Assembly (NCBI GenBank): GCA_023396915.1
Contig: JAEWUV010000006.1
Location: 21,129-85,128 of the forward strand
Origin: Candidatus Parcubacteria bacterium
GTDB taxonomy: Bacteria; Patescibacteriota; Microgenomatia; UBA12405
Reading direction: 5' to 3'
Length of the DNA: 64,000 bases
Shown: piece by piece, positions 3,616-43,698 of the stretch
Position numbering within the stretch: the stretch's first letter is position 1
Layout: each line of letters starts with the position of its first letter
Made by a program: the position numbers and the translations under genes
The notes under the pieces: generated by a model
What the model was told of the DNA's origin: nothing
Seen by the model: the letters and a program-made list of their open reading frames with translations, nothing else
Database searches by the model: none

Positions 3616-4722
3616 TTAACGTACCTTTAGGGTATTTGACTCAAAAACTATATCTAGTGGTTTGATAATAACTTTTTTAGGTCCGGTAGTAATTTGGCCG
3701 GCGATAACCGATTTAAAACCAGATTCTGAAATTATTTTTTGAGCAAATTCGGTTTGATCTTTTGGCAAGAACAAAGCATAACCGACTCCCATATTAAAAT
3801 TGGCGTACATTTCGGTATTACTAATATTGCCTTGTTTTTGAATAAAATCGAAGACTGGTTGGGGTGGAAGTATATTTTCGATAGTATAAATAAAGTCTTT
3901 GTTGGCTCGCATAAGTTTACGCCACCCGTGACCGGTAATATTGGAAATGTAGTGGATATCAATATTTTGGTCTAATAAATTAGCAATAACTTTGGCGTAA
4001 ATATGGGTTGGGGCTAAAAGAGCTTCTCCATAGGTAGAACCGTTGGGAAGTTTGGCGGCATAACCATCAGGGTGATTTTCGGCAATGGATCGGGCCAAAG
4101 ATAAACCGTTGGCATGAATGCCGCTGCTTTCGATAAAAATAATAGAGTCGCCGTCTTGGAGTTTGTTTTGAGTAATCAGTTTTTCTTTTGGTTTAATAAT
4201 TCCAATGGCTGAACCGGCTAAATCAATGGTTTCAGGGTTGATAACACCCCTTAAGGTTGGGGTTTCGCCCCCACCATAAACAGCACCAGACATATCGCAG
4301 GCATTTTTCCAACCAATAATCAGGTCTTTAAATCGGGTTTCGTCAGATAACCAGTCAGAACTGCCAATACCAAAATAGGCATTGACCACCATAGGTTTGG
4401 CTCCGACGGTAACTAGATCGTTTACAATCATAGCCACAGTGTCTTGGGCAATTTGGTCATAATGGGTTTTGCCGGTAAATTTGCGGGTGGCGTCGGCAAC
4501 TAAATTTTTGGTACCTAAGCCTTCAATTACTAGTGCTTTATAACAATCGCCTTCGTCCCAAACATAGGCAGATTCTCCCCTGCTTTCGGTAACTTCTGAC
4601 ATATTTAGTTTTGATAAATTTTGTGCAGTATTAGCGGCTTGAGTTTGAGCAAAAACCTTGACTGGGTCCATTTTTGAATAATCAACTCCTGAAGAAGCGT
4701 AGTTGGAATTTTGTTTTGTCAT
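3616..4722 (-). CDS. purM: phosphoribosylformylglycinamidine cyclo-ligase (AIR synthase)
   Basis: Aligns along its length to E. coli PurM from memory: EGLGTKNLVAD, VAMIVNDLVTVGAKP, GGGETPTLRG, HANGLSLAR, LLAPTHIY, NITGHG, EMYANFNMGVG. Confidence 0.8.
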   Translation of the reverse strand: MTKQNSNYASSGVDYSKMDPVKVFAQTQAANTAQNLSKLNMSEVTESRGESAYVWDEGDCYKALVIEGLGTKNLVADATRKFTGKTHYDQIAQDTVAMIVNDLVTVGAKPMVVNAYFGIGSSDWLSDETRFKDLIIGWKNACDMSGAVYGGGETPTLRGVINPETIDLAGSAIGIIKPKEKLITQNKLQDGDSIIFIESSGIHANGLSLARSIAENHPDGYAAKLPNGSTYGEALLAPTHIYAKVIANLLDQNIDIHYISNITGHGWRKLMRANKDFIYTIENILPPQPVFDFIQKQGNISNTEMYANFNMGVGYALFLPKDQTEFAQKIISESGFKSVIAGQITTGPKKVIIKPLDIVFESNTLKVR

Positions 4723-8527: not shown

Positions 8528-8609
8528 GCCAGGGTGTTGAAATTGGTATACAAGCATCGCTCAGAACGGTGTGTCGCAAGACGTATGGGTTCAAGTCCCA
8601 TCCCTGGCA
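8528..8609 (+). tRNA. tRNA-Leu(CAG), long variable arm
   Basis: Acceptor stem GCCAGGG/CCCTGGC. Anticodon arm catcg-CTCAGAA-cggtg. T-loop GGTTCAAGTCC. Confidence 0.75.
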
Positions 8610-8655
8610 CTAGGGTAGTGAAAAATGGATAGTATTTAGTATAATAAGGACACTG

Positions 8656-8728
8656 GCCGAAGTAGCCAAGATGGTCACGGCACTGGTCTGAAAAACCTGG
8701 GATGTCAGTTCGAGTCTGACCTTCGGCA
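8656..8728 (+). tRNA. tRNA-Phe(GAA)
   Basis: Acceptor stem GCCGAAG/CTTCGGC. Anticodon loop cTGAAaa. T-arm GTCAGTTCGAGTCTGAC. Confidence 0.6.
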
Positions 8729-8732
8729 CAGT

Positions 8733-8805
8733 GCGGGAATAGCTCAATTGGTGGAGCGTCTCCTTGCCAAGGAGAAGGTCGCGGGTTCGAGTCCCGTTTC
8801 CCGCT
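8733..8805 (+). tRNA. tRNA-Gly(GCC)
   Basis: Acceptor stem GCGGGAA/TTCCCGC. Anticodon arm tctcc-TTGCCAA-ggaga. T-loop GGTTCGAGTCC. Confidence 0.8.
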
Positions 8806-8816
8806 CATTTTTTTTG

Positions 8817-8889
8817 GGCCGTTTAGCTCAGTTGGTAGAGCGCTTCGTTTACATCGAAGATGTCGGGGGTCCGAGTCCCTCAGCGGCCA
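8817..8889 (+). tRNA. tRNA-Val(TAC)
   Basis: D-arm TAGCTCAGTTGGTAGAGC. Anticodon arm cttcg-TTTACAT-cgaag. T-loop GGTCCGAGTCC. Confidence 0.8.
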
Positions 8890-8910
8890 CCCGATTACAT
8901 TAAAAAATAA

Positions 8911-8992
8911 GCCGATGTGGTGAAATTGGTATACACGTACGCTTGAGGTGCGTATGCCGCAAGGCGTGGGGGTTCAAGTCCCTCCATCGGCA
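8911..8992 (+). tRNA. tRNA-Leu(GAG), long variable arm
   Basis: Acceptor stem GCCGATG/CATCGGC. Anticodon arm tacgc-TTGAGGT-gcgta. T-loop GGTTCAAGTCC. Confidence 0.75.
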
Positions 8993-9005
8993 CATTTAGT
9001 TCAAT

Positions 9006-11270
9006 TTGGCAGTGGACTTTAGTTTTAACTCGGATATAATTAGTTGCTTGTTTATGAAAAAAAAGAATATTTTATCTAATCAAAAAGAAGTTGATGTACG
9101 TGATTTTGTATTTAAAAATATTACTCCATACGATGGAAACAGTGAATTTTTAACTGGTCCGAGCGAAAAGACTAAAAAACTTTGGGATAGATGTAAAGTT
9201 CTGTTGGATAAAGAAATTAAAAATGGTGGGGTATTGGATATAGACACAGAAACAGTTTCTACTATTACTAGTCATAAACCCGGTTATATTGATAAAAAAT
9301 TAGAAGTGATTGTCGGTTTGCAAACAGATGAAGCTTTGAAGAGGGCTATTAAGCCGGCTGGTGGAATTAGAGTAGTAATGAAGGCTTGTGAGGAAAATGG
9401 TAGAGAGGTTAATGATGAAATTGTTAAGGTTTTTACTGAATATAGAAAAACCCATAATGACGGTGTTTTTAGCGCTTATACTGAGGAAATGAGGCGACTA
9501 AGAAAGACAGGTGTATTAACTGGGCTGCCTGATGCTTATGCCAGAGGAAGAATTATTGGAGATTATAGGAGAGTTGCTTTGTATGGTGTGGATAAATTGA
9601 TTGAAGAAAAACAAAAGGATGAAGAGAAATTGTTAGGTGAAATGAATGATGAAAAAATTAGATTAAAGGAAGAAATCAGCGAACAGATATTGGCTTTGGG
9701 AATGATGAAACAGATGGCGTCAACTTATGGTTTTGACATTGGTAGACCGGCAGCCTCAGCTTCTGAAGCAATAGAATGGACTTATTTAGCCTATTTATCG
9801 GCAGTTAAAGAACATGATGGAGCGGCCATGAGTTTGGGTAATGTAAGTAGTTTTTTTGATATTTATATTGAAAAAGATATAAATAATGGGATTTTGACTG
9901 AAGAGAAAGCACAAGAATTAATTGATCAATTTGTGATTAAACTTAGATTGGTCCGACATTTAAGAACGTCGGAGTATAACGAGTTATTTGCTGGTGACCC
10001 GACATGGATTACTGAATCTTTGGGGGGATGTTGGAATAATGGTAAACATAAAGTAACAAAAACTACATATAGATTTTTACAAACTCTTTATAATTTGGGA
10101 CCATCACCAGAGCCGAATATGACTGTGTTATGGTCAGAGAATTTACCTGAAGAATTTAGGAAATTTTGTGCTAAGGTTTCGATTGATACTTCATCCATTC
10201 AATATGAGAATGATGATTTGATGAGAGAATGTGGTTGTACTGATGATTATGGGATTAGTTGTTGTGTGTCAATGTTGGAAACTGGAAAGCAAATGCAGTT
10301 TTTTGGAGCCAGATGTAATATCGCCAAAGCTTTATTATTGTCTTTAAATGAGGGTGTTGATGAGATAACCGGAATTAAAATTTTAGATATTGATGCAGTT
10401 CCTGGAAAATATTTGGATTACAAGGAAGTTTGGAAAAGATATAAAAAGACTTTGTCTTTTTTGGCTGAAAATTACGTAAATACTATGAATATCATTCATT
10501 ATATGCATGATAAATATTACTATGAGAGAGCTCAGATGGCATTGTTGGATACTGAAGTGAAAAGAGTGATGGCCTTTGGTGCAGCTGGTTTTTCAGTAGC
10601 TGTTGATTCTTTGTCGGCGATAAAATATGCCAAGGTTAAGGCGGTTAGAAACGATCAAGGAGTGGCGACAGACTTTGAGGTCATAGGTGATTTTCCAAAA
10701 TATGGTAATGATGATGATAGGGTTGATAATATTGCCAAAGAGGTGGTGGAGTTTTTCAATAATGAGTTGAAAAAACATCATATTTATAGGGATGCTGTAC
10801 CGACTTTGTCAATTTTGACAATTACTTCAAATGTAGTTTATGGCCATAAAACCGGAGCTACTCCGGATGGAAGAAAAGCTGGTGCACCTTTTGCTCCGGG
10901 AGCCAATCCGATGCATGGTAGAGATACTAGTGGGGCGATTGCATCGTTAAATTCGGTAACAAAATTAGGTTATGAGAATGCTCGTGATGGAATTTCTAAT
11001 ACTTTTTCGACAACCACGAAGACTTTGGGTGGTACTTTGGATGAAAAAGAAAATAATTTAATGAAATTATTGGATGGTTATTTTAAGAAAGGTGGACATC
11101 ATTTGAATGTCAATGTAATGGATAAATCAACCTTACTTAAAGCAATGAAGCATCCGGAAAATTATCCGCAATTGACAATTAGGGTTTCTGGTTATGCAGT
11201 TAATTTTATTAAATTAACTCGTGAACAGCAGGAAGAAGTACTAGCCAGAACTTTTTTTGAATCAATGTAA
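9006..11270 (+). CDS. pflB: formate C-acetyltransferase (pyruvate formate-lyase)
   Basis: Near full-length similarity to E. coli PflB. Glycyl radical motif RVSGYAV near the C-terminus. Active-site CC region (GISCCVS) present. By alignment the true start is probably the internal Met near 9054 ([18 protein letters not shown]...). Confidence 0.9.
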
Positions 11271-11275
11271 GATTT

Positions 11276-12103
11276 ATGTTAAAACAAATTTTGGGAAAGG
11301 AAAGTTTTTCACCTGAGGAGATGGGTCAGAATTTAGATATTGTGGCTTTGAAAAAAGTAAGTTATCCATGGGTAAAAACGTTTATTTTGGCTGTTTTGGC
11401 TGGTATTTTTATTTCGTTTGGGGCAATGTTTTCGACTGTCGTTGGTTCTGGCTCTAGTAATTTTTATGGTTTATCTAGGTTGTTGGTTGGACTGTCATTT
11501 AGTTTAGGGTTAATTTTAGTAATATTGAGTGGAGCTGAATTATTTACCGGATCGACAATTGTGTCTGTCGGAGTGGCGAATAAAAAAATTAGATTATCGA
11601 AGTTATTTACTAATTGGTTGTTGGTTTATCTGGGAAATTTTATCGGTTCATTTTTAATTGCGTTATTGGTTTTTTGGGGTAAACAATATATGTTTGGTAA
11701 CGGATTAGTTGGAATAAATGCTGTTAATACAGTATTATCCAAATTACATCATACTTTTGGTGAGGCAATTGCTTTGGGAGTTTTGTGTAATATGTTGGTT
11801 TGTTTGGCTATTTGGTTAACTTATAGTACGAAATCAGTGTCGGGGAAAATATTGGTGTTAACGTTTCCAGTTACCGCTTTTGTAGCGGCAGGATTTGAGC
11901 ATAGTGTGGCTAATATGTATTTTTTCCCGATGGCTTTGTTGATTAAAAATTTTGATTTAAGTTTTACAGGATTGGTTGATATGTCTAGTTTAACTTGGGG
12001 TCATTTTTTGATTAGTAATTTGTTACCGGTAACTATAGGAAATATTATTGGAGGAGTTTTTATTTGGTTGATATTAAATTTTTTGTATAAAAAACATGCT
12101 TAG
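11276..12103 (+). CDS. focA: formate/nitrite transporter family (FocA-like formate channel)
   Basis: FNT-family hydropathy and motifs (GAELFTG, FEHSVANMYF). Sits between pflB and pflA. Confidence 0.85.
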   Translation: MLKQILGKESFSPEEMGQNLDIVALKKVSYPWVKTFILAVLAGIFISFGAMFSTVVGSGSSNFYGLSRLLVGLSFSLGLILVILSGAELFTGSTIVSVGVANKKIRLSKLFTNWLLVYLGNFIGSFLIALLVFWGKQYMFGNGLVGINAVNTVLSKLHHTFGEAIALGVLCNMLVCLAIWLTYSTKSVSGKILVLTFPVTAFVAAGFEHSVANMYFFPMALLIKNFDLSFTGLVDMSSLTWGHFLISNLLPVTIGNIIGGVFIWLILNFLYKKHA

Positions 12104-12821
12104 AGTTCATTCGATAGAAACTTTTGGAACTCACGATGGTCCGGGCTTACGGTTGGTAATATTTTTACAAGGTTGTGGTCTTCGTTGCTTGTATTGTCAT
12201 AATCCTGATTTATGGGAACGTTGCGGTGGTAAGTTAATGAAAAGATCAGACTTAATTAAAACCGCTGAGAAACAAAGAGAGTATTTTGGTAAAAATGGTG
12301 GGGTGACGGTTTCTGGGGGTGAACCAACTTTACAAGTAAAAAATTTAACTAAGTTATTTATTTCACTAAAAAAAAGAGGAATTAATACAGCTTTGGACAC
12401 TAATGGAATAATTGTCTCTAAAGAGGTTAAGAGGCTATATCGTTATAGTGATTTAGTGTTGCTTGACGTAAAACATATAGATGAAAAAATGCATATTAAA
12501 TTAACTGGGGCTTCGAATGGGAATGTATTTAAAATGGCTGAATTTAGGGAGAAAAGCGGAAAAGATATGTGGATAAGATATGTGTTGGTGCCGGGGTGGA
12601 ATGATAGTGACAAATATTTAAGACAATTTGGAGAGTATTTTAAGAATTACAAAACGATAAAAAAAATAGAGATACTCCCCTATCATACTTTGGGAGTGTA
12701 TAAATATAAGGAATTAGGGTTGAAATATAAATTGTCTAAGGTTAAACCACCAACTAAGGAAAACATTGAAAACGCTAAAAAAATATTGAGCGAATATTTT
12801 TCGAATGTAACGGTAGAATGA
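12096..12821 (+). CDS. pflA: pyruvate formate-lyase activating enzyme
   Basis: Radical SAM motif CGLRCLYC and GGVTVSGGEP. Similar in size and order to PflA. Confidence 0.9.
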   Translation: MLRVHSIETFGTHDGPGLRLVIFLQGCGLRCLYCHNPDLWERCGGKLMKRSDLIKTAEKQREYFGKNGGVTVSGGEPTLQVKNLTKLFISLKKRGINTALDTNGIIVSKEVKRLYRYSDLVLLDVKHIDEKMHIKLTGASNGNVFKMAEFREKSGKDMWIRYVLVPGWNDSDKYLRQFGEYFKNYKTIKKIEILPYHTLGVYKYKELGLKYKLSKVKPPTKENIENAKKILSEYFSNVTVE

Positions 12822-17055: not shown

Positions 17056-17233
17056 AAAAATGGCGAAATTCGTATTCGCTGGAGTATAACATATATATAA
17101 AATTTGGTTTTTTAGTGTTTTTGGGATGTGAAAAACGGTATTGGTAGTGTTTGATATACATTTCCTTAGTTTTATCCCCTACTATAATTTTTTGAAAAAA
17201 ATATACTGGTAAATACATTAGAAATAAATAATG

Positions 17234-17320
17234 AATTGGGTGTAATTCCCAAACTGTGCCGCAACGGTTAAAGTCCGATCTTATTTATTTTATTAGTTAG
17301 TCCGAGCCAGACTGTCTTTT
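17234..17320 (+). promoter_or_regulatory. cobalamin (B12) riboswitch-like aptamer in the nrdD 5' leader
   Basis: 17238-17278 GGGTGTAATTCCCAAACTGTGCCGCAACGGTTAAAGTCCGA matches the conserved cobalamin riboswitch core (GGTG.AAT.CC....CTG.CCGCAAC.GT.AA). 17299-17316 AGTCCGAGCCAGACTGTC is B12-box-like. Confidence 0.55.
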
Positions 17321-17371: not shown

Positions 17372-19708
17372 ATGTTCAAAAAAATAAAAAAAAGAGATGG
17401 AAGAGTGGTTAAATTTGATTCGAGTAAAATTAAATTGGCAATTCAAAAAGCAGGTAGGGTTACCGGTGAATTTGATGAGAGAATAGCTTTGAAATTGAGC
17501 GTAAAAGTATTAGATTTAGCTGAGGAAAAAATTACAAATAAAATCCCAAAAGTTGAAGAATTGCAGGATGTTGTGGAAGAGGTGTTGTTGGATTCGAAAT
17601 ATAAAAAAACAGCTAAAGAATATATTACCTATAGACAAGAAAGAACACAAATTAGGGAAGCTAAGGCAAATTTGATGCAGGTTTATAAAACAATTGCTTT
17701 GGCTCAGGCAGAAGAAGACAGTGATGTAAAACGGGGTAATGCTAATGTTGATGGCGATACGGCGATGGGAAAAATGTTACAATTTGGAGCTGAAGGAAGT
17801 AAAGAATTTGCCAAAAAATTTTTGATGAAACCAGAACATGCAGTGGCGCACGATAATGGGGATATTCATATTCATGATTTGGATTTTTGGGCCACAGGGA
17901 CGTTGACTTGTTGTCAATCTGACCCGTTAGTTTTATTTGAAAAAGGATTTAATACTGGTCATGGTTTTTTAAGAACACCAAATTCTATTGGTAGTTATGC
18001 GGCATTGGCGGCAATATTGTTACAAGCGAATCAAAATGAACAACATGGGGGGCAGTCTATTCCAAATTTTGATTATGCTATGGCGCCGGGGGTGTTGAAG
18101 ACTTTTAGAAAAAGTTTAGTGAGTAACATTTTAAAATCAATTGATTTTATTTTTAGTAAAAGTATTGAGAAACAAGTGATAAAACAAATTGTTGTTGAGA
18201 TTGAAGAAAAAAATAAATTAACTTTCCCAGAATTGTCCAAGGATTTTTTGAAAAGTTTAAAAAGTTTAGTAAAGAAAAAAATAAAAGAAGATTTAACGTT
18301 TAAACAATTAAATAAGATTGTTGAACTTTCGGTTAAAGATACTGAAGAACAAACAAATCAAGCGATGGAGGGATTGATTCACAACTTGAATACCATGCAT
18401 TCTCGGGCTGGAGCTCAGGTGCCATTTACTTCAATTAACTTTGGGACAGATACTACAGCTGAAGGGCGATTGGTTTCAAAAGCTTTTTTAAAGGCGACTA
18501 TGAATGGGTTAGGAAAAGGAGAAACGCCAATTTTCCCTATCTCAATTTTTAAAGTGAAAGAAGGAATAAATTATAATCCGACGGATCCTAATTATGATCT
18601 ATTTAAGCAATCAATGGAAGTTTCGAGTAAAAGATTGTTTCCTAATTTTGTGTTTGTGGACGCACCATTTAATTTAAAATATTACAAACCAGGTGATTAT
18701 CGAACAGAAATTGCCACCATGGGGTGTAGAACTCGGGTGTTTGGATCGGTATTTCCTGAAAGTGATGGAATTGCCACTAGGAGAGGAAATTGTTCGTTTA
18801 CGACAATAAATTTGCCTAGAATTGGGATAAAACATGGAGTTGATTGGGATGGGTTTTATAAAGAATTAGATGAAAAGATGGATTTAGTGGCTAACCAATT
18901 ATTGGAGAGATTTGAGTTTCAAGGTGAAAGGCGAGTAAGAAATTTTCCATTTTTGATGGGGCAAGGAAATTGGATGGGAAGTGAAAAATTAGGTCCTGAC
19001 GACAAATTAAAAGATGTAATTAAACATGGAACTTTGTCGATTGGTTTTATTGGTTTGGCAGAAACTTTAGTGGCAATGACCGGAAAACATCACGGAGAAT
19101 CGGTTGAGTCCCAAAAAAATGGTTTGGAAATAATTGGATTTATGAGAAAAAAATGTGATGAATTGATGAAGAGATATAATTTGAATTTTAGTTTGTTAGC
19201 AACTCCGGCCGAAGGTTTGTCAGGACGATTTACAAAAATGGATAAAAAAGAATTTGGGGTGATTAAGGGAGTAACTGATCGGGAATTCTATACTAACTCT
19301 TTTCATGTGCCGGTCTACTTCCCTCTTGGAGCTTTTGAAAAAATTGAAATTGAAGCGCCGTATCATGATTTGTGTAATGCTGGACATATTACTTATGTGG
19401 AGTTAGACGGTAATTTGAGTAATAATATTGATGCTTTTGAGGCGGTAGTACGAAAAATGAAAGAATCAGGAGTCGGTTATGGCAGTATTAACCACCCGGT
19501 TGATAGAGATCCGGTATGTGGTTTTAGTGGAATTATAGATGGTGATACTTGTCCGTCCTGTGGCAGAAAAGAGTTTAACAATGGAGTCGGTTTTGAAAGA
19601 TTGAGAAGAATTACCGGTTATTTGGTGGGGTCATTAGAGCGGTGGAATGATGCCAAAAAAGCTGAAGAAAAAGCCAGGGTTAAGCATTCCGTAAAATTTA
19701 AAAATTGA
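17372..19708 (+). CDS. nrdD: anaerobic ribonucleoside-triphosphate reductase (class III)
   Basis: N-terminal ATP-cone (KRDGRVVKFDSSKI). C-terminal Zn motif CPSCG. Glycyl radical motif RITGYLVGSL. Confidence 0.9.
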   Translation: MFKKIKKRDGRVVKFDSSKIKLAIQKAGRVTGEFDERIALKLSVKVLDLAEEKITNKIPKVEELQDVVEEVLLDSKYKKTAKEYITYRQERTQIREAKANLMQVYKTIALAQAEEDSDVKRGNANVDGDTAMGKMLQFGAEGSKEFAKKFLMKPEHAVAHDNGDIHIHDLDFWATGTLTCCQSDPLVLFEKGFNTGHGFLRTPNSIGSYAALAAILLQANQNEQHGGQSIPNFDYAMAPGVLKTFRKSLVSNILKSIDFIFSKSIEKQVIKQIVVEIEEKNKLTFPELSKDFLKSLKSLVKKKIKEDLTFKQLNKIVELSVKDTEEQTNQAMEGLIHNLNTMHSRAGAQVPFTSINFGTDTTAEGRLVSKAFLKATMNGLGKGETPIFPISIFKVKEGINYNPTDPNYDLFKQSMEVSSKRLFPNFVFVDAPFNLKYYKPGDYRTEIATMGCRTRVFGSVFPESDGIATRRGNCSFTTINLPRIGIKHGVDWDGFYKELDEKMDLVANQLLERFEFQGERRVRNFPFLMGQGNWMGSEKLGPDDKLKDVIKHGTLSIGFIGLAETLVAMTGKHHGESVESQKNGLEIIGFMRKKCDELMKRYNLNFSLLATPAEGLSGRFTKMDKKEFGVIKGVTDREFYTNSFHVPVYFPLGAFEKIEIEAPYHDLCNAGHITYVELDGNLSNNIDAFEAVVRKMKESGVGYGSINHPVDRDPVCGFSGIIDGDTCPSCGRKEFNNGVGFERLRRITGYLVGSLERWNDAKKAEEKARVKHSVKFKN

Positions 19709-20196
19709 TGAATCAAATTAGATTAGCTAGTGAAATTGAGACCGATAATGTGGTTAATGGTGATGGCTTGAGAGCTGTAATTTGGTGTCAGGGTTGTAGA
19801 CTTCGTTGCAAGGGGTGCCATAATCCTGAAACTTGGGATGAAAAAGGTGGAACTTTGGTGGATGTTGATGAGATTAAAGGAAAATTAAAAAAAATAAAAG
19901 GTCAAAACGGTTTGACATTTTGTGGTGGTGAACCGATGTTACAACCACTAGTTTGTAAAGAAATAAGTGAGTGGGTAAAAAAAGAATTGGGCTGGTCAGT
20001 GTGGTCGTTTACTGGATATTTATATGAAGATATAAAAAAAGAAGGTGGTGATAGATGGGAGTTTTTGAAGACTTTGGACGTTTTAATTGATGGTCCTTTT
20101 ATATTAGCTGAAAAAGATTTAAGTATTAAATTTAGAGGGTCACGAAATCAAAGATTAATAAGATTGAGTAAAGGTGAAATTTTATCTATTGAATAG
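19705..20196 (+). CDS. nrdG: anaerobic RNR activating protein
   Basis: Radical SAM motif CQGCRLRCKGCHN. Overlaps the nrdD stop by 4 nt. Confidence 0.9.
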   Translation: MMNQIRLASEIETDNVVNGDGLRAVIWCQGCRLRCKGCHNPETWDEKGGTLVDVDEIKGKLKKIKGQNGLTFCGGEPMLQPLVCKEISEWVKKELGWSVWSFTGYLYEDIKKEGGDRWEFLKTLDVLIDGPFILAEKDLSIKFRGSRNQRLIRLSKGEILSIE

Positions 20197-22155: not shown

Positions 22156-22365
22156 TTAGATTAAAGTTTGAATAATGGAAGAAATGATAAAAATAACGAT
22201 AATAAAAATTGTTAAATTAAACATAATTTTTTCCCAACCACGTTTTTGCGGAGCTGGTGACATTAAGTTGGAGCGGGATTCACTGTCGCCATTTGTTTGA
22301 AGAAAAACAAGACCGGCCAGAACTATAGACAGAATAATTTGAATTATGATGAGAGCTGTTTTCAT
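22156..22365 (-). CDS. secG: SecG-like preprotein translocase subunit
   Basis: 69 aa with two TM helices and a LAGLVFLQTNG motif, like SecG (LxxLxQxxKG). Confidence 0.5.
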   Translation of the reverse strand: MKTALIIIQIILSIVLAGLVFLQTNGDSESRSNLMSPAPQKRGWEKIMFNLTIFIIVIFIISSIIQTLI

Positions 22366-22781
22366 TGTTTAACTTTTTTCTTAATAATTAATGTAAATAG
22401 ATTTAGAAAGAAACCTATGGTGATTGAAGTGACTAGGTAGGCAAAAAAGCCTGAAAAGTTTAATTGTGGAATATTTATTCCCAAGACAGACGTTTCTGGA
22501 GTGTGAATATTTTTTATGTAAAAGTCGGAAAAAATGAACACTGCCAAATAAAGTCCAACTACATCGATAATGGCACGAAAAAGACCTAGGGTAAGGATAT
22601 TTATGGGGAAAAGAATAATTTTTAGTATTGGTTTGATGATAATTTCAAAAATAGATAAAAGAAATCCGGTTTTGATTATGGTCCATGGGATGTTGATAAA
22701 TTCTAAGTTACCCCAAATTTGATTAGCGGTGATTAAACTGAAAGTGATGAGGAGAGTTAATTTAGCGATTTTTTTTATCAT
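22362..22781 (-). CDS. 4-TM membrane protein, 'phage holin 4_2'-like family (paralog of 7257-7592)
   Basis: Shares the IIKPILKIILFPINILTLGLF core with the ORF at 7257-7592. Confidence 0.5.
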   Translation of the reverse strand: MIKKIAKLTLLITFSLITANQIWGNLEFINIPWTIIKTGFLLSIFEIIIKPILKIILFPINILTLGLFRAIIDVVGLYLAVFIFSDFYIKNIHTPETSVLGINIPQLNFSGFFAYLVTSITIGFFLNLFTLIIKKKVKQ

Positions 22782-38068: not shown

Positions 38069-39112
38069 TTAACCTGATTGATTATAGCATTTATAAGCGG
38101 TTTCAAGTTCGTTTTCTCCTAATCTATTTTTGGGTTCTATGTAGCAAAGTTTTAAGAAATTATAAAGTTTTTTTTCATTAGTAAAATTATAAATTTTTCC
38201 TGTTTTTAGGTTTTTTATTCCATATTCTGAGACTGAATAACCTAAAGAAAGGGCATGTTTTCGAAGTAAGATATTGTGTTGGCGTGAACCGGTAAAATGT
38301 TGTAAAAGCGAGGCAAAATTTTTGGCCGGTTGGACCATAATATCAACCCTAATATCTGGATAAATTTTAATGGAAGCTTTTTTGGCCCCACGATCAATAG
38401 TTTGAATATTTTCAGGATATTGAATGAAATAATCCAAAATTTTTGCAGAATTTTTTGATTTAGCGGCTAGGTCAATATCCCCTATCGTAAGTGAATGTCG
38501 ACGTAAACTGCCGAGGGCGTAAATTTCAATTTTGGGAAATTTTTCATGAAGATATTTAATGATTTTGTCAGATTTAATTTTGGCTTCTTGATAATACATG
38601 CGGCGACTTTGACCTAAAAAGGCTAGTGTATTTTCTAGTATTGAGGCTTCGGATTTAATTCCAAAATGGGGCCAATTTCTAATTTTGCCTTGCCGACAAT
38701 ATTGGATTAACTGGTCCAATGCTTTGAGTGGATTTTTAGAAAATTTTAGTTTTTTGGTAAGAATATAAGCAGTTTTGGGGCCGATACTATTGATTTTGGT
38801 AAAAATGAAAACCAAAGGAGAGATACCTTTGAAGGCACGGATAACATGAGGGTGAAGTTTGCCGGTGGTAAAAAGATAAGTAATTTTGGTAAAAATGTTG
38901 GGACCAATGCCGGGAATATTATCAAATAATTGTGGGTCTTTTTGCCAAAGATGATAGACAGATTTGGGATAAGTCAGAATGGTTTCAGCAGCGTCTTGAT
39001 AGGATTTAATTCGGAAGAAATTTTTCTTTTTGATTTCGTAGGCAGTAGCAATATTTTGGAGTATCTCGGCAATTTGTTGGTTAGAGTAATCTTTTTTAGT
39101 TTTACTCATCAC
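38069..39112 (-). CDS. DNA polymerase beta-like (family X) nucleotidyltransferase
   Basis: HhH motif IPGIGPNI. NT_POLXc catalytic motif GSLRRHSLTIGDIDL. No PHP domain. Confidence 0.65.
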   Translation of the reverse strand: MMSKTKKDYSNQQIAEILQNIATAYEIKKKNFFRIKSYQDAAETILTYPKSVYHLWQKDPQLFDNIPGIGPNIFTKITYLFTTGKLHPHVIRAFKGISPLVFIFTKINSIGPKTAYILTKKLKFSKNPLKALDQLIQYCRQGKIRNWPHFGIKSEASILENTLAFLGQSRRMYYQEAKIKSDKIIKYLHEKFPKIEIYALGSLRRHSLTIGDIDLAAKSKNSAKILDYFIQYPENIQTIDRGAKKASIKIYPDIRVDIMVQPAKNFASLLQHFTGSRQHNILLRKHALSLGYSVSEYGIKNLKTGKIYNFTNEKKLYNFLKLCYIEPKNRLGENELETAYKCYNQSG

Positions 39113-39150: not shown

Positions 39151-39885
39151 ATGTTTAAAGAAGGGTCTCCATCACATTCTTTGAATATTAATAAAGAAAA
39201 AAGTTTTAATTGGGACAGGGCTTTGGAGGCAGCAAAGTTTTTTGAACGCGACATTGATGTAGAGGATGTAGTTCCTAGATATGTTACTAATTGGGAGATT
39301 TTGGCTTCTTTTGTAAATTTGGCAATAGACTTAAAAGGAAAAGAATTTAAATACAACACTATAGTTTCTGATGATGGGGGTGGTCGAGTTATATCGATTT
39401 TTATAAAATATCTTTTTAGTATTAAGCGTATGGAGATTGAAAATAATGCTCCTAGTCCAATGGTTTATTTTGTTTCTCCACATAAACCGGATTTAGTGAA
39501 TAGTTTTGTTGATAATATTCATGATTCATTGGGAAAAGTCTTGGTGGTTACGGAATTAATTAGAAATGGGAAAGGGACGAGAGTTTTTGGTGATGCCTTG
39601 AAAAGATATAACGATGTAAGTTTTGATGTGGCCTCGGTTTCTAGTGTGAAGCCTGGAGTACCAGAACAACTAGAGTCTGAATATAACACTAAGGTGTTTG
39701 TAGGTGAGAGTCTAGGTTGGGGAGCGGGAGAGGTTTTTCATAAACAACCGTTTAATGCGGTTGGTGGTGTCCTTATAGAAGGGAAACCACATTTAAAAAA
39801 AAGAGATGATTTTGATTCCCCAGTTGTGGCTGCTGCTCGGAAGAATATTTTTACTTTAGCTGAGGAAATTTCGAAGTTAATTTAG
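39151..39885 (+). CDS. hypothetical protein, possibly phosphoribosyltransferase-like
   Basis: Weak PRTase-like motif VLVVTELIRNGKGT (hydrophobic run + acidic + G.T). Otherwise uncharacterised. Adjacent to the purine genes. Confidence 0.3.
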   Translation: MFKEGSPSHSLNINKEKSFNWDRALEAAKFFERDIDVEDVVPRYVTNWEILASFVNLAIDLKGKEFKYNTIVSDDGGGRVISIFIKYLFSIKRMEIENNAPSPMVYFVSPHKPDLVNSFVDNIHDSLGKVLVVTELIRNGKGTRVFGDALKRYNDVSFDVASVSSVKPGVPEQLESEYNTKVFVGESLGWGAGEVFHKQPFNAVGGVLIEGKPHLKKRDDFDSPVVAAARKNIFTLAEEISKLI

Positions 39886-40997
39886 GTAGTGATTTGGTCT
39901 AGACAATTATTTTTAACAGCTGATTTGATTTCCATAGCGACACGAGTACCGACACTTAAATGTTTTCCATAAAGATAGAAGTTGTAAGGAGTGGCAAAAA
40001 GTCCGGGTGATCCGGGCATTCTAGGTGAAACATCAATAACAACAATATCTTTTTGTGGAGGTCCGGGGACGATAATTGATTGAAGAGCAAAAGGACCAAT
40101 TACTCCGGGTGAATAAAGATCCTGACAGGCTTTGACAAAGCTTTCGCCTAAAATAAAAGCTTTTTCGAGCATTGATTCCAATACCGTGACAGCAATGTGG
40201 CCGGCTTCTTCATATTTAATTTCCATTTTTTTAAGAACTTCAGTTTGATAACTGACGGGAATACGAGAAAGACCTTCGAGATTGGTTTGGCGACGGGTAT
40301 CAGTGCCCATAAGCTCTAATCTTTTGCTAGTCGGTGAATAGAAATAATTAAAATTGGTATGAACTCCAGTGACAAATTCTTCGATTACAGATTTTTGTAA
40401 TTGTTCTTCGGTAAAGGCGCCTTGTTGAAGTAATTTATCAGTTTGATTTTTAAAATCTTGATAAGAATCGACCATAAAGAAAGCTCTTTCAAAACCACGG
40501 GCTTTTTCTAGAACTTTAACTAAACAAAGTCTGTCGATGTTTTTTGGGTCGGTGAATTGAATAGGAAAACGAATGCCGGCCGATTTTAGGATATCGTATT
40601 GGTTGGGTTTGACTCCCCTCTCTTCGGATTTGAGTAAAAATTTATTACCAAACATAGGAATTTTAAAGTCATTTTCAATAGCCTTGTAGTCGAAATTTAG
40701 GTAAACTTCAAAAGATCGATGAGGGACAAAAATGGTATTTTGATCAATTAATTGTTGTTGGATTTGAGGGTTAAGTAAATCAGAAAATTTGTCTAAAATT
40801 AGACAATTATCAACACAACCAATTTTTCCGTCGGTTTTGTAATATTTAGAATAAACAGCATCACGGCCCTTTTGGGCAATAACCAGTGTTTTGAAACCGA
40901 GTTTTTTGGCACCACTACAAACATCAAGAGCACTGTGTGAACCGAGAACGGCAATAGTAATTTTTGACGGGTCGTAAGTTTTAATTATATTCTCCAT
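39882..40997 (-). CDS. purP: PurP-family ATP-grasp protein (FAICAR synthetase paralog)
   Basis: Collinear with archaeal PurP (IAVLGSHSALDVCSGAKKLGF, VPHRSFEVYL, FGNKFLLKSE, NFNYFYSP, ELMGTDTRRQTN, PFALQSII). Paralog of the adjacent gene. Confidence 0.8.
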   Translation of the reverse strand: MENIIKTYDPSKITIAVLGSHSALDVCSGAKKLGFKTLVIAQKGRDAVYSKYYKTDGKIGCVDNCLILDKFSDLLNPQIQQQLIDQNTIFVPHRSFEVYLNFDYKAIENDFKIPMFGNKFLLKSEERGVKPNQYDILKSAGIRFPIQFTDPKNIDRLCLVKVLEKARGFERAFFMVDSYQDFKNQTDKLLQQGAFTEEQLQKSVIEEFVTGVHTNFNYFYSPTSKRLELMGTDTRRQTNLEGLSRIPVSYQTEVLKKMEIKYEEAGHIAVTVLESMLEKAFILGESFVKACQDLYSPGVIGPFALQSIIVPGPPQKDIVVIDVSPRMPGSPGLFATPYNFYLYGKHLSVGTRVAMEIKSAVKNNCLDQITT

Positions 40998-40998
40998 T

Positions 40999-42012
40999 TT
41001 AGTCTAAAATTAAATTTAATTTATTGGATTTTTTGGCTAAATTAATTTCTCGGGCGATACGACGACCAGTGCTCATGGGTTGACCATAAACCAAATCGCT
41101 ATAAGGAGATCCGTTGATATGGATGTTGGTACCGGCAACAATGCGGCAAGAAATTTCGATAATATGGAATTTTAGGTCGGGAGTAATAATAGTTTCCAAA
41201 CAAAAAGGTCCGTAAATACCTTTTTTGTCAATTAATTTTTGAGAAGCGGCAACTAGGCGTTCACCCATTTCGTAAGCTTCGGGCATCATGGATTCCCGTA
41301 AAACAACAGGGGTATTCCCTACTACGGTATAACTAGGATTAATATCAAGTTCTTGTTGGTTTTTTGAAGGGATTCTACCAAGTGAATCAACGTTGGTTTC
41401 ATAACGGCGATCCATACCAAGAATTTCAACTTGTTTGGTTAAAGGAGAATAAAAATAATGGATATAAAGATTGACACCGATGACATATTGTTGAATAGTA
41501 TATTTTTTGCCTTTGGGGATATTTTTAAGTTTTTTGGCTAAATCTTTTTTAGAACTGGCATAAAAATAACCACTACCACCATCAGCTCCGTGGGTTTTGA
41601 CGATAACAGGATATTCAATTTTATTAATGTCAGAGTATTCTTTTGGAGTATTAATATTGGCTTGTTTAAGCCAAAGGGATTGTTTATCTCTGTCGGCTTC
41701 CCAATCCAGAACGGCTTTGTTGCCAAAATAAGGTAAAGACATTTCTTTGTTTTTTTCTAGACCTAAGTGAGCCACAAAGCTACCATGAGGAATGACAATA
41801 GCATTTTCTTTTCGGAGTTCTGGTTCTACTTTAGAAAAATCTGACCAGTCGGGAATGGTAATAATTTTGTCGATAAAAGGGAAACGCTTATAAAAAGAAA
41901 CTCTGTCTGGGGTAGAAACCAGAATTGTGTTGAACTTCTCGTCTTTGGCGCCCTTAAGGATTTGAAGAGCAGAATGACTAGCTAGAGTAACGATACTATA
42001 TTTTTTATTCAC
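40999..42012 (-). CDS. purP: 5-formaminoimidazole-4-carboxamide ribonucleotide (FAICAR) synthetase, archaeal type
   Basis: Strong collinear similarity to M. jannaschii PurP as recalled (IVTLASHSALQILKGAKDEKF, IPHGSFVAHLGLE, YFGNKAVLDWEADR, YPVIVK, YIHYFYSPL, ILGMDRRYETNVD, GPFCLETI). Confidence 0.85.
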   Translation of the reverse strand: MNKKYSIVTLASHSALQILKGAKDEKFNTILVSTPDRVSFYKRFPFIDKIITIPDWSDFSKVEPELRKENAIVIPHGSFVAHLGLEKNKEMSLPYFGNKAVLDWEADRDKQSLWLKQANINTPKEYSDINKIEYPVIVKTHGADGGSGYFYASSKKDLAKKLKNIPKGKKYTIQQYVIGVNLYIHYFYSPLTKQVEILGMDRRYETNVDSLGRIPSKNQQELDINPSYTVVGNTPVVLRESMMPEAYEMGERLVAASQKLIDKKGIYGPFCLETIITPDLKFHIIEISCRIVAGTNIHINGSPYSDLVYGQPMSTGRRIAREINLAKKSNKLNLILD

Positions 42013-42060
42013 TGATAAGCTGAGTTTAAATGGCTAAGGGCGATAATTCAAGGCTATATT

Positions 42061-43467
42061 TTAAAGTTTCTCAACTCTGATGACCTGTTTCCTTTCCGGT
42101 CCGGTACCTAAAAGGACAGGTTGACAACCGGTTTTTTCCAAAAGAAATTTTAAATATTCTTTGGCCTCGTCAGGAATTTCGTCATAATTTTTGGCAGCAC
42201 TGATTTTATCAGTGTTCCATGAAGGAAGCTCTTGATATTGTGGTTCTACTAGGTCTGCCCACCATTGGTAAGGACGATAGTCAACTTTTTCTCCGGTGCT
42301 TTTTAATTTATATTCGGTGCAGAGTTTAATGTTAGTATTTGGTTTAATGGCATCCATGTGACTAATAGCAATTTCATTGGCATGGCTGACTTTGGCATAA
42401 AAGGCAGTAGCTACCAAGTCGGGAAAAGCAACATCTCGGGGTCTGCCGGTGGTTCCACCAAATTCATGGAAAGTGTCCCGGTACCAATTGGCCAAATCTT
42501 CGGGCATTTGGGTGGGTAATTTTCTGGCACCAACACTGGAACAGTAAAGTTTACTGATTCCAATTCGGTGTTCAATTTCCATATGATTAACCAAACCTTC
42601 GGTCGAGGCATCAATTCCGATAAAACTTGGGTCAGAGGCGGTTATATCAGGTTTGACTCCATATACCGGATGGATACCAACACCCTGAGACATTTCAAAA
42701 AGGAAAGCATACTTGTTCGGACTTTCCCAGGCTTGTTTGACAAAATCATAGACATCTTCGATATAAGGTAAAAGGAACTCACGATATTTTTTAAGGTTAG
42801 AAATAAAATCTTGTTTACTTCCAACTAGTTGTTTCTCTCCGCCTTTGGTGTCGGAAAAAATAGGAATTAAGATTTCTGACATTTTAAGGTCAAGGCCGGA
42901 TATAATTTGAGAAAAATAGTCGTAATGTTTTTCAAAAGCCCCAAAATTTCCTTCAACTAAATCTTTGACATAAAGTTCTTGGCGAAGGGTTCTGTCGGCA
43001 TAAGCGGGACTAATCCCTTGCCCGGTAGCTCCTTTGCCAATATCTTTGGTACTTTTAAGGGCGAATTCAAAAGCCTGATGAGTGGGTAGAGCTAAGGTGG
43101 CGGTAGCGCTGACTTTAATAGTTGAAGGAATTTCTCCTCCGGATAATTCTTTGACCTTGCCTATTTCATAGGTTAATCCCTGAGGGTTGATAACTTTGCT
43201 GTTGCCTAAAATGGCATAAACATTTTTATTAAAAACTCCGCTGGGAAGTTGGTGAAGATTAATAGAAATTCTTTGTCCATTATTCTGGTCTATTTCTATC
43301 CGGTGTCCAGCATTGGCTCCACCGCTAACACTGTAATCGACGCAAGTAAGGCCTTTTCCAACATACTCTTCGGCTATTTTATCGGCGAATTTTGCTTTAC
43401 CCTCATCTCCCCATTGGGCGCCTTGGATGGCGGTACTGTTTGGTCTGGTTTTAATCATATAACTCAT
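42061..43467 (-). CDS. purA: adenylosuccinate synthetase (divergent)
   Basis: PurA motifs GAQWGDEGKAK, GGANAGH, GATGQGISPAY, GGTTGRPRD, LGTGPER. The P-loop reads GKAK instead of GKGK. 468 aa. Confidence 0.75.
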   Translation of the reverse strand: MSYMIKTRPNSTAIQGAQWGDEGKAKFADKIAEEYVGKGLTCVDYSVSGGANAGHRIEIDQNNGQRISINLHQLPSGVFNKNVYAILGNSKVINPQGLTYEIGKVKELSGGEIPSTIKVSATATLALPTHQAFEFALKSTKDIGKGATGQGISPAYADRTLRQELYVKDLVEGNFGAFEKHYDYFSQIISGLDLKMSEILIPIFSDTKGGEKQLVGSKQDFISNLKKYREFLLPYIEDVYDFVKQAWESPNKYAFLFEMSQGVGIHPVYGVKPDITASDPSFIGIDASTEGLVNHMEIEHRIGISKLYCSSVGARKLPTQMPEDLANWYRDTFHEFGGTTGRPRDVAFPDLVATAFYAKVSHANEIAISHMDAIKPNTNIKLCTEYKLKSTGEKVDYRPYQWWADLVEPQYQELPSWNTDKISAAKNYDEIPDEAKEYLKFLLEKTGCQPVLLGTGPERKQVIRVEKL

Positions 43468-43586
43468 TTTAAGGTGGTTTTATTGTAAAAGAAAGGAATT
43501 GTTTAATGAGTAAATAGTAAGTATAATGAGGAAATAGACAAAAATTTACTATTTTGATATAGTATCTCTTGTCTTTAGACCAAAAA

Positions 43587-43660
43587 GGGTTTGTGGTGCA
43601 GCGGTCTAGCACATCCGCCTGTCACGCGGAAGATCGTGGGTTCGAATCCCATCAGACCCG
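43587..43660 (+). tRNA. tRNA-Asp(GTC)
   Basis: Acceptor stem GGGTTTG/CAGACCC. Anticodon arm tccgc-CTGTCAC-gcgga. T-loop GGTTCGAATCC. Confidence 0.8.
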
Positions 43661-43670
43661 CTTTTAAATT

Positions 43671-43698
43671 AATCCCCTATATTAGGGGATTTTTGATA
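43671..43698. terminator. bidirectional intrinsic terminator-like hairpin
   Basis: ATCCCCT-ATATT-AGGGGAT followed by TTTTT. Lies between tRNA-Asp (+) and the end of the radical SAM gene (-). Confidence 0.55.

Follow-up and report, generated by a model that had tools for sequence, protein, structure and literature searches.

What is a CPR bacterium doing with two adjacent genes for PurP, a family recorded in archaea only when 1,403 complete genomes were surveyed in 2019, and what does the second gene contribute that the first does not? We examined this pair in a 64,000-nucleotide stretch of DNA (the window), in which the coordinates of all four ORFs at the locus were verified. Three of these ORFs form one minus-strand unit that runs from purA (42061..43467), which encodes a divergent adenylosuccinate synthetase of 468 amino acids, through PurP-A (40999..42012; 337 amino acids) to PurP-B (39882..40997; 371 amino acids). 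The stop codon of PurP-A is separated from the start codon of PurP-B by a 1-nt spacer, and both are intact genes. We find that they make up a type I/type II PurP pair, an arrangement previously described only from archaea and found here in a CPR bacterium beside purA. The host probably belongs to the Microgenomates group of the CPR/Patescibacteria. The leader and promoter region of the unit (43468..43586, minus strand) lies between the purA start and a tRNA-Asp gene on the opposite strand (43587-43661), and a hairpin at ~43665-43690 terminates the radical-SAM gene upstream of it. Searches of this leader against Rfam returned no riboswitch and no other match, and promoter-like matches within it were not above chance.

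Profile searches assign both proteins to the PurP family proper (DUF1246 plus DUF1297; COG1759), as the original prediction had proposed; in an HMM search, the best ATP-grasp score of each was to PurP. PurP-A matches DUF1246 with 137.4 bits and DUF1297 with 232.1 bits, and PurP-B matches them with 138 and 195.8 bits (cutoffs 25 and 23.8). Each is collinear over its full length with MJ0136 and PF1517, the proteins of known structure (2R7K, 2R84), with E values of 1e-95 to 1e-47, and of 1.6e-102 for the best alignment. Among solved structures, PurP-A scores best against PF1517 (346 bits; residues 4-335 collinear with residues 2-332, E 1.6e-102) and second against MJ0136 (320 bits), while PurP-B aligns with MJ0136 at 238 bits (residues 4-369 to 10-359, E 1.2e-69). 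Both proteins fall below the NCBIfam PurP equivalog cutoffs (379 versus 580 for PurP-A, 287 versus 556 for PurP-B), which belong to models built on archaeal subgroups. The family is archaeal in character, as had been claimed, and the two proteins are mutual paralogs with 30% identity (E 4e-50).

The two proteins differ in a consistent manner at positions that define two types of PurP. Scoring signature residues over 89, and later 150, family members, we found 37 positions that are invariant across both types and 16 further positions that are at least 90% conserved within each type, with a different residue in each. PurP-A carries the type-I residue at all 16 of these positions and groups with type I in the tree; PurP-B has all 16 type-II consensus residues. 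Common to both proteins (in MJ0136 numbering) are His27 and Arg314, which contact the formyl group, Ser94 and Ser266, which contact the 5'-phosphate, and the ATP-grasp Lys156. PurP-A also retains N258 (its Asn233) and E310, and its loop GADGGSGYF keeps every glycine of the glycine-rich loop; the two basic positions of the (K/R)GG(K/R)G sequence at 161-165 are Asp and Ser, a DGGSG variant that is common to PurP-A and its closest relatives. We thus assign PurP-A to type I (archaeal cluster Ib, 'PurP II'-like) with a full catalytic signature, and predict it to be an ATP- and formate-dependent FAICAR synthetase. PurP-B fails both type-I features: the carboxamide-contacting Asn258 is replaced by His (its His267), and the loop, EKARGFERAFF, is two residues longer, with a conserved ERAFF motif in place of the glycines. 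Moreover, E310 is Asp, RIVAGTN has become RMPGSPG, and type II carries the changes E230Q and E297Q along with the rewritten ATP loop; the formyl contacts are His21 and Arg326 in PurP-B's own numbering. The Asn258-to-His exchange and the longer loop without glycines are the published diagnostics of the archaeal types (Brown 2011, PMC3261824), by which PurP-B is classified as type II (archaeal cluster II, 'PurP III').

Both types are ancient and were known from archaea beforehand (Brown 2011, PMC3261824; Cruz 2019, PMC6486802). In our tree, the division between type I and type II is placed as the deepest in the family, older than the archaeal phyla, with PurP-A and PurP-B on opposite sides of it, and the Microgenomates clades in the two halves match. 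Over 66 genomes, type-I distances track type-II distances (matrix correlation r = 0.80; maximum of the permuted values 0.14), and thus the types have been inherited, or transferred, as a pair; it appears that the pair passed as a unit between CPR bacteria and DPANN or other archaea. The two copies are accordingly no lineage-specific tandem duplicates that later subfunctionalised, but two old types that travel together. The genes themselves are closely associated. In a survey of 80 genomes or loci (50 bacterial-labelled and 30 archaeal-labelled, ±10 kb each), 49/50 bacterial-labelled and 20/30 archaeal-labelled loci had type I no farther than 10 kb from type II; the two were adjacent (<300 nt apart) in 39 bacterial and 17 archaeal cases, and the gap was ≤10 nt in 35 pairs.

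The surroundings of the pair point to purine synthesis, as originally predicted. At least five de novo pur genes surround the pair at 29 bacterial loci, in the order purF-N-D-L-Q-(guaA)-(purA)-I-II-(purH)-purB-(purK)-purE-purC-purM; no PurT was seen. purA is linked to the pair in 21 of the 50 bacterial loci. In the window, the product of purA, recognized beforehand as an upstream homolog on the same strand with a GKAK P-loop, matches PF00709 (Adenylsucc_synt) with 263.7 bits over residues 14-463 and keeps the motifs GDEGKAK (one Gly replaced by Ala relative to GDEGKGK), NAGH, FEMSQG (versus FEGAQG) and TTGRPR; it scores below the NCBIfam PurA equivalog cutoff (246 versus 402 bits). The unlinked purM (3616..4722, minus strand), also correctly identified at the outset, encodes an AIR synthetase with AIRS and AIRS_C domains, scores 222 bits against TIGR00878 (cutoff 236) and is 50% identical to the purM of a CPR pur operon (locus L046); its presence indicates that purines are made de novo in this genome. 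Pfam matches bear out PflB and FocA as well, in a pflB-focA-pflA cluster (9006..12821, plus strand) that includes the PFL-activating enzyme: PFL-like with 672 bits plus Gly_radical, Form_Nir_trans with 246 bits, and Radical_SAM plus Fer4_12. This cluster is a possible internal source of formate for the PurP pair.

Full-length, apparently intact purH is present in 11 of the 29 operon-rich CPR loci, and also in Gracili- and Peregrinibacteria loci, whereas the other 18 have no purH, purO or purJ within the ±10 kb scanned; PurH or another cyclohydrolase could sit beyond ±10 kb in these genomes. The 18 loci share no conserved unassigned ORF besides PurK, an ITPase and a small ORF of ~88 amino acids. 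In the window, no IMP cyclohydrolase domains (MGS-like plus AICARFT_IMPCHas, or IMP_cyclohyd) were found in the ~60 ORFs of ≥100 amino acids; apart from two or three that overlap longer ORFs or tRNA genes, each ORF was either scanned directly or judged by the Pfam label of the source contig, and the same domain scan does find PurH in the relatives that have it. In archaea, PurP I alone always occurs with PurO (25/25 taxa); of 61 taxa with the II/III pair, 37 have no cyclohydrolase of a known kind and 10 have PurH alongside the pair (Cruz 2019, PMC6486802, Table 1).

We therefore favor, with a probability of roughly 65%, the reading that the unit is a formate- and ATP-dependent AICAR-to-IMP module that feeds PurA, in which PurP-B is an obligate partner. 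PurP-A, with all of the catalytic and substrate-contact residues of the M. jannaschii enzyme, would use ATP and free formate, by way of formyl phosphate, to make FAICAR. PurP-B retains the shared contacts and Lys156, but has His for Asn258, the rewritten loop, and amides or shorter side chains at acidic positions that type I conserves. From these altered residues we infer an obligate partner, one that probably joins PurP-A in a hetero-oligomer and would either close FAICAR to IMP or enable the formylation. PurA would then convert IMP to adenylosuccinate, and the PFL/FocA system, encoded 30 kb away, could supply the formate. Most relatives, Microgenomates among them, have the pair midway through a complete operon for de novo purine synthesis, between purQ/guaA and purB, where it would form the folate-independent end of the pathway; here the operon has come apart, leaving the pair with purA. 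It counts against this reading that activity has never been demonstrated for a protein of cluster Ib or of cluster II; in particular, PF1517 and PF0421 of P. furiosus, assayed singly, are cited as inactive as FAICAR synthetases (Zhang 2008, as cited). The sub-cutoff NCBIfam scores of both proteins and the DGGSG loop of PurP-A also weigh against it, as do the loci with an intact PurH beside the pair, where the pair is dispensable for both steps and could act otherwise, and the chance that a cyclohydrolase gene lies beyond ±10 kb in the other loci.

A stronger version, which we put forward as a tentative proposal that is well short of even odds, is that type II is itself the IMP cyclohydrolase that has been missing from Crenarchaeota, Thaumarchaeota, Pyrococcus and many CPR bacteria. 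Type II would then be an ATP-grasp paralog without acyl-phosphate chemistry, in which His267 together with His21 and Arg326 closes FAICAR, and the pair would be a hetero-oligomeric AICAR-to-IMP synthase that performs two steps and needs no folate, a non-homologous equivalent of PurH.

A competing possibility, following a proposal of Cruz 2019, is that type II is a silent structural or regulatory subunit, such that a hetero-hexamer of types I and II formylates AICAR only and the ring is closed elsewhere by PurH, PurJ, PurO or another protein. The strict pairing and tight coupling of the genes fit this possibility, as do the rewritten ATP loop with E230Q and E297Q, the inactivity of the P. furiosus proteins on their own and the weak trimer-trimer interface of PF1517; moreover, in Daviesbacteria-type operons a full-length PurH lies directly downstream of type II, and thus IMP cyclohydrolase is supplied there. 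However, type II is not decaying. Purifying selection acts on both types, with within-type divergence of 0.41 for type II and 0.46 for type I, and type II has invariant residues of its own (R94, E164, R167, R171, N215, N217, Q237, H267 and Q306) in addition to the nucleotide and formyl contacts that it retains. The lack of a cyclohydrolase in so many CPR operons and archaeal taxa likewise speaks against a subunit confined to formylation, and we regard this explanation as possible, but the less probable one.

Somewhat more doubtful is the idea that a folate-dependent PurH is encoded elsewhere in the genome and that the pair serves as its conditional back-up, when 10-formyl-THF runs short and fermentation yields ample formate, much as PurT stands beside PurN. 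PurH does co-occur with the pair in 15 of the 50 bacterial loci in addition to the 10 archaeal taxa, the relatives have PurN, and both PFL and FocA are encoded in the window. On the other hand, the nearest relatives of the window in both trees (L007, L008, L012, L014, L017, L019 and L023) have no purH in otherwise compact operons, no ZTP or folate-stress riboswitch precedes the unit, and a back-up does not explain the need for two paralogs. The use of the folate-dependent PurN by relatives also means that a lack of folate is no reason for PurP. A refuting condition named in the original prediction, that a complete PurH route would leave PurP redundant, with a pseudogene as its second copy, is not borne out in relatives, which keep both types intact and conserved where full-length PurH is present.

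The fourth ORF at the locus, which bears on a further alternative, is a lineage-specific gene for a 244-amino-acid protein (39151..39885, plus strand). It had been described as divergently transcribed, but it is convergent with PurP-B, tail-to-tail, with 4 nt shared between the 3' ends; it is divergent solely from a PolX-like gene (38069-39112). The PRTase-like character proposed for the protein is weakly supported. A PRPP-binding loop has four hydrophobic residues, two acidic residues and then xx-x-(S/T)-G-x-T, and the corresponding motif, VLVVTELIRNGKGT, is invariant in five sequences, with Thr-Glu in place of the two acidic residues. No Pfam or NCBIfam match was obtained at E ≤ 0.01, including to Pribosyltran (PF00156), a profile search of PDB sequences gave nothing, and Foldseek gave no significant result; among 5.8 billion proteins there are just five relatives. 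The protein possibly has a PRTase-like fold, and the gene is probably not part of the purA-PurP module.

This neighbor, if PRTase-like, would suit a salvage module, in which imported or recycled AICAR (ZMP) yields first IMP and then AMP; such a role has been proposed for Korarchaeum, where the pair occurs with purB only. The K. cryptofilum precedent, the detachment of the pair from a pur operon and its junction with purA, and the reduced gene set of Saccharibacteria-like loci (L060, L064, L076 and L085), where nothing but purA, guaA, prs, pyrF and a PRTase-like gene accompanies the pair, are all consistent with salvage. We nevertheless consider it unlikely, given that purM, which has no salvage role, lies 35 kb away and that close relatives at 65-70% identity have the full pur operon. 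Least probable by far is a recent tandem duplication in which the second copy came to act on another aminoimidazole ribotide, such as AIR, as a PurK-like N5-carboxylase: PurP and PurK both use an acyl phosphate to acylate a 5-amino group, the changed residue is the AICAR carboxamide contact and purK is missing from many operons. This version is nevertheless contradicted: no division in the family is deeper than that between the two types, which is older than the archaeal phyla, PurK-like genes are present in at least nine pair loci (one confirmed by Pfam as ATP-grasp plus PurK_C), the PurE is of class I, and Sulfolobus has a functional PurK together with the pair, as most Crenarchaeota have both.

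The occurrence of the pair in CPR bacteria bears on two questions that have been open since 2008-2011, namely how the ring is closed in purine-making archaea without PurH or PurO, and why neither PurP II nor PurP III of P. furiosus is active in single assays. The pair is widespread in CPR bacteria, in compact operons in which the other steps are accounted for, and the 18 of 29 operons in which no cyclohydrolase appears within ±10 kb provide an independent phyletic test. Because the hosts presumably live at moderate temperatures, cyclisation by heat without an enzyme explains little, and E. coli purH or purK mutants should be easy to complement with the CPR proteins. PurP is thus not a signature of archaea alone, and de novo purine synthesis, with free formate as one of its inputs, is probably within the reach of many Microgenomates.

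Among known systems, the pair most resembles the archaeal pair of clusters Ib and II (PF1517 with PF0421, those of Sulfolobales and Pyrobaculum, and Korarchaeum Kcr_0400/0401), to which the window proteins are 50-56% identical. The archaeal pair has the same Asn258/His258 and loop diagnostics, and shares with the CPR pair obligatory co-occurrence, frequent adjacency, linkage to purB or other pur genes, and occurrence both with and without PurH. It differs in that the host here is a presumably mesophilic CPR bacterium (sample SAMN17215431, with no sign of high temperature), in that the bacterial order is I followed by II in 48 of the 49 loci with both types while the archaeal order is mostly II followed by I, and in that the pair here has purA as its partner and lies outside a pur operon, with the loop DGGSG in PurP-A. 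MJ0136 (cluster Ia, 'PurP I'), the sole PurP with demonstrated FAICAR synthetase activity, resembles PurP-A in its ATP-grasp fold, DUF1246 and DUF1297 domains, contact residues and glycine-rich loop, but MJ0136 works alone and always with PurO, whereas the PurP-A lineage is always paired with type II and its members have shown no activity in single assays. PurT and PurK share with PurP the ATP-grasp acyl-phosphate chemistry on a ribotide amino group, and PurT also takes free formate, but they are separate families (PF02222, PurK_C), and a genuine PurK is found beside the pair in several loci. Finally, the bifunctional PurH is unrelated to PurP in fold and chemistry, using 10-formyl-THF and no ATP, and some CPR operons contain both PurH and the pair; it catalyzes the same step and in relatives occupies the same operon neighborhood, and the pair may do with two proteins what PurH does with one.

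The paired PurP genes beside purA are confirmed, and the interpretation placed on them in the original prediction was right in part, as to membership of the PurP family and not as to a local duplication. All ORFs lie where they had been placed: purA (42061-43467, 468 aa), PurP-A (40999-42012, 337 aa) and PurP-B (39882-40997, 371 aa) on the minus strand, and a 244-aa ORF (39151-39885) on the plus strand. In a Pfam scan, PurP-A and PurP-B each have both PurP-specific domains far over threshold, with rival ATP-grasp families reaching at best E ~1e-4, and both proteins are collinear over their full length with solved PurP structures; the NCBIfam equivalog cutoffs are reached by neither. The window PurA is a divergent adenylosuccinate synthetase in which all motifs are kept.

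The two PurP proteins are only 30% identical and fall on the two sides of the known type I/type II split, and thus the two copies are not the product of local duplication. Archaeal PurP has been divided into clusters Ia, Ib and II, or PurP I, II and III (Brown 2011, PMC3261824; Cruz 2019, PMC6486802). The sole active enzyme known is in cluster Ia (PurP I; for example MJ0136 of M. jannaschii); cluster Ib (PurP II; for example PF1517 of P. furiosus) binds ATP and AICAR with no activity found, and no activity has been found for cluster II (PurP III; for example PF0421 of P. furiosus) (PMC3261824; PMC6486802). Clusters Ib and II co-occur invariably and are frequently adjacent, and cluster II is diagnosed by replacement of Asn258 (MJ0136 numbering) with His and by a loop that is two residues longer and is without the glycines of the (K/R)GG(K/R)G P-loop (PMC3261824; PMC6486802). 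PurP-A has Asn at the 258 position and the loop GADGGSGYF, while PurP-B has His267 at this position and the loop EKARGFERAFF. We compared 150 sequences, comprising PurP-A and PurP-B, three solved structures and the type I and type II proteins of 80 loci from a genome-collection scan, and found a clean two-way split of the family. Across both types 37 positions are invariant, among them H27, K156, S266 and R314, and 16 positions are switched, each type being at least 90% conserved with a different residue (type I to type II: G93R, G159E, G162R, Y166F, Q199E, Y208N, H210N, E230Q, N258H, E297Q, E310D, A317G, G318S, T319P, N320G and S326T). PurP-A has the full type I consensus and PurP-B the full type II consensus, and therefore both proteins are intact. 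Within-type divergence is 0.41 for type II versus 0.46 for type I, and type II is a distinct conserved protein rather than a decaying copy.

The end of purA is 48 nt from the start of PurP-A, and a single base separates the PurP-A stop from the PurP-B ATG (GAC TAA A ATG). Found 5′ of purA are only a tRNA-Asp gene on the other strand and a hairpin that ends the radical-SAM gene before it, and searches of the leader, with the gathering threshold and with E ≤ 1 as cutoffs, gave no ZTP (pfl) or other riboswitch; thus, purA, PurP-A and PurP-B look like a single transcription unit. Promoter and terminator scans gave matches not above shuffled expectation. The 244-aa gene is outside this co-transcription, and it is not divergent as had been stated, since it converges on PurP-B with a 3′ overlap of 4 nt. 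It is lineage-specific, with five homologs, and has no HMM match in Pfam, NCBIfam or a PDB-sequence profile search; its AF2 model is of moderate quality and yielded no significant Foldseek match. Its invariant VLVVTELIRNGKGT motif is PRPP-loop-like, yet Thr-Glu replaces the acidic pair, and a PRTase-like identity is possible but unproven. Homology to the PRTase-like gene in the equivalent position of a Saccharibacteria locus (L064) was rejected (hhalign probability <1%). In a close relative (contig of P0242, JGI 3300075153), the 244-aa ORF is 84% identical, and gene calling gives PurP-B as two ORFs, one of 102 aa with DUF1246 and one of 235 aa with DUF1297; frameshifting, pseudogene formation or faulty sequencing could account for this. 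A PolX-like gene (38069-39112, minus strand; 347 aa) is divergent from the 244-aa ORF; its product has the HHH_8 and thumb domains, matches the palm domain weakly and lacks a PHP domain.

The PurP family is small, with only 591 clusters at 50% identity in an exhaustive search. The type II profile used for the genome scan, which returned the 80 loci, was built from a narrower alignment (A3), as a diverse alignment (A2) was without a sufficiently conserved stretch. Bacterial loci come from many Microgenomates lineages, Saccharibacteria, Gracilibacteria, Peregrinibacteria, Dependentiae and a few MAGs with other labels; the many archaeal loci (51-55% identity) come from DPANN, Methanosarcinales, Thermoplasmatota and Thaumarchaeota. 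A type I gene lies within 10 kb of the type II gene in 49 of 50 bacterial-labelled and 20 of 30 archaeal-labelled loci, and the two are directly adjacent in 39 and 17, respectively, with a gap often ≤10 nt, although some gap values are approximate because ORF starts are naive longest-ORF calls. Bacteria have type I followed by type II, while archaea mostly have the reverse order. In a neighbour-joining tree (without bootstrap), the type I and type II halves mirror one another, and the distance matrices of the two types are correlated with r = 0.80, compared to a permuted maximum of 0.14; the pair has therefore travelled as one unit, by inheritance as well as by transfer. Two Micrarchaeota MAGs of the DPANN (L050 and L061) have the bacterial order followed by purA, and in the type I half of the tree as in the type II half their proteins adjoin the Microgenomates clade, which suggests that the module as a whole has moved between CPR and DPANN.

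Natural type I-type II fusions, looked for as a sign of a complex, were not found, the long ORFs being N-terminal over-extensions. One locus (L022, 9989-12403) has a single 804-aa ORF that joins a type II PurP (residues 2-340) to PurB (residues 374-801); an error of assembly or a frameshift could have produced it, and if real, it would tie type II physically to the AICAR-making enzyme. Several TPA_asm MAGs titled ‘uncultured Gammaproteobacteria bacterium’ (L007, L010, L011, L013, L015, L016, L022, L023, L028, L034, L037, L041 and L047) bear Microgenomates-like pur operons with PurP 60-70% identical to those of the window, and these titles look unreliable. The closest PurP homologs of the window proteins carry the names Roizman-, Davies- and Shapirobacteria, and the window, of ∼35% GC, encodes a bacterial Pol III alpha. 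Judged by the homolog names, the host would be a CPR/Patescibacteria member of the Microgenomates group, with which GC content and polymerase agree. The window's GC skew is positive in all 2-kb bins of the 64 kb.

In 29 bacterial loci the pair is inside a compact de novo operon with the order purF-purN-purD-purL-purQ-(guaA)-(purA)-I-II-(purH)-purB-(purK)-purE-purC-purM, and purA is linked to the pair in 21 of 50 bacterial loci. The purA-I-II order in the window is a piece of this layout, with purM located 35 kb from the pair. Curtissbacteria-type operons (L032, L034, L035 and L043) end, after guaA, with a gene for Ham1/ITPase, a non-canonical purine NTP pyrophosphatase. Four Saccharibacteria-like loci (L060, L064, L076 and L085) have the pair with purA, guaA, prs, pyrF and a weak PRTase-like gene, and no further de novo pur gene inside ±10 kb; they hint at use of the pair in AICAR/ZMP salvage and resemble the minimal situation of Korarchaeum.

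Of the 29 operon-rich loci, 11 encode full-length PurH, the bifunctional AICAR transformylase/IMP cyclohydrolase, beside the pair, as do Gracilibacteria and Peregrinibacteria loci (L074 and L081). E. coli PurH and PurK sequences served only as BLAST probes, with matches verified by Pfam; three PurH proteins were so verified (MGS and AICARFT_IMPCHas), and in the alignment both sets of catalytic motifs are intact. The idea that the Daviesbacteria-type PurH is a cyclohydrolase only, with a dead transformylase, was rejected, since the catalytic Lys-His (KHLSPCG), GAGQxSR and DxFFPF are all kept. Some PurH motifs are unusual (L016, L018, L021, L024, L025, L027, L031, L039, L041 and L045): the Microgenomates type has GRMKTISF versus GRVKTLHP in the cyclohydrolase domain, and the Davies type has KHLSPCG versus KHxNPCG, retaining the catalytic Lys and His. 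Some PurH-bearing operons also have PurK and class-I PurE, and one (L025) encodes all of the canonical bacterial pathway in addition to the pair; the co-occurrence of PurK with the pair dismisses PurP-B as a PurK substitute. The remaining 18 of the 29 operons show no purH, purO or purJ, and the window's closest relatives in both trees are in this PurH-less group; likewise, domain scans found no cyclohydrolase gene among the window ORFs. A hidden cyclohydrolase among the conserved unassigned ORFs of PurH-less operons was also rejected, as these yielded only PurK, Ham1/ITPase, an ∼88-aa ORF and a Glu/Gln-tRNA synthetase.

The pair is part of the closing stretch of purine synthesis, and each member is functionally tied to the other. 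PurP-A would be an ATP- and formate-dependent FAICAR synthetase, because all MJ0136 residues are present (residue roles follow Brown 2011, PMC3261824). PurP-B retains the ribotide-phosphate and formyl contacts and swaps precisely the residue in contact with the carboxamide, the nucleophile of ring closure; its glycine-rich loop is rewritten, and conserved acidic residues are changed, E230 and E297 to Gln and E310 to Asp. Analogy with other ATP-grasp enzymes makes E297 and E310 probable Mg-ATP ligands. This pattern fits a protein that binds FAICAR and has given up acyl-phosphate chemistry. PurP-B could thus be a cyclohydrolase, a role on which Brown et al. 2011 (PMC3261824) speculated for cluster II, or a non-catalytic partner required for formylation, as proposed by Cruz et al. 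2019 (PMC6486802). Either reading can accommodate the co-occurrence with PurH, provided that the pair offers a folate-independent alternative to PurH as a whole or in part. Lack of folate is not the driver, since relatives use the folate-dependent PurN. A plausible donor is formate from the PFL/FocA encoded in the window; of the window's 15 tRNA genes, five are clustered (8528-8993) directly 5′ of pflB.

Elsewhere in the window, an AdoCbl-II (cobalamin) riboswitch (17221-17291, plus strand) is directly 5′ of an anaerobic NrdD and activase-like gene (17372-20196), which suggests that B12 represses an RNR that does not need it. Phage_holin_4_2 family genes (7257-7592, plus strand; 22362-22781, minus strand) lie in otherwise housekeeping surroundings. 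A 609-aa protein (14669-16498, minus strand) with weak matches (29-35 bits) to archaeal ADP-dependent phosphofructokinase/glucokinase is a further archaeal-flavoured enzyme in this bacterium.

The CPR operon pattern, with and without PurH, matches that in archaea, where all 25 taxa with a lone PurP I also have PurO, and where, of 61 taxa with the pair, 37 have no cyclohydrolase and 10 have PurH (Cruz 2019 Table 1, PMC6486802). The crenarchaeal cyclohydrolase was not yet identified as of 2019, and our literature search found nothing later that settles its identity, nor, among the papers searched, any that names PurP along with CPR terms. Presumably mesophilic proteins from compact operons offer material for the puzzle of the missing cyclohydrolase and the inactive PurP proteins. 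The window pair is no new kind of system; it is a bacterial (CPR) case of the known archaeal PurP type I/type II pair, the range of which is thereby widened to bacteria, against the ‘archaea-only’ statement of the literature.
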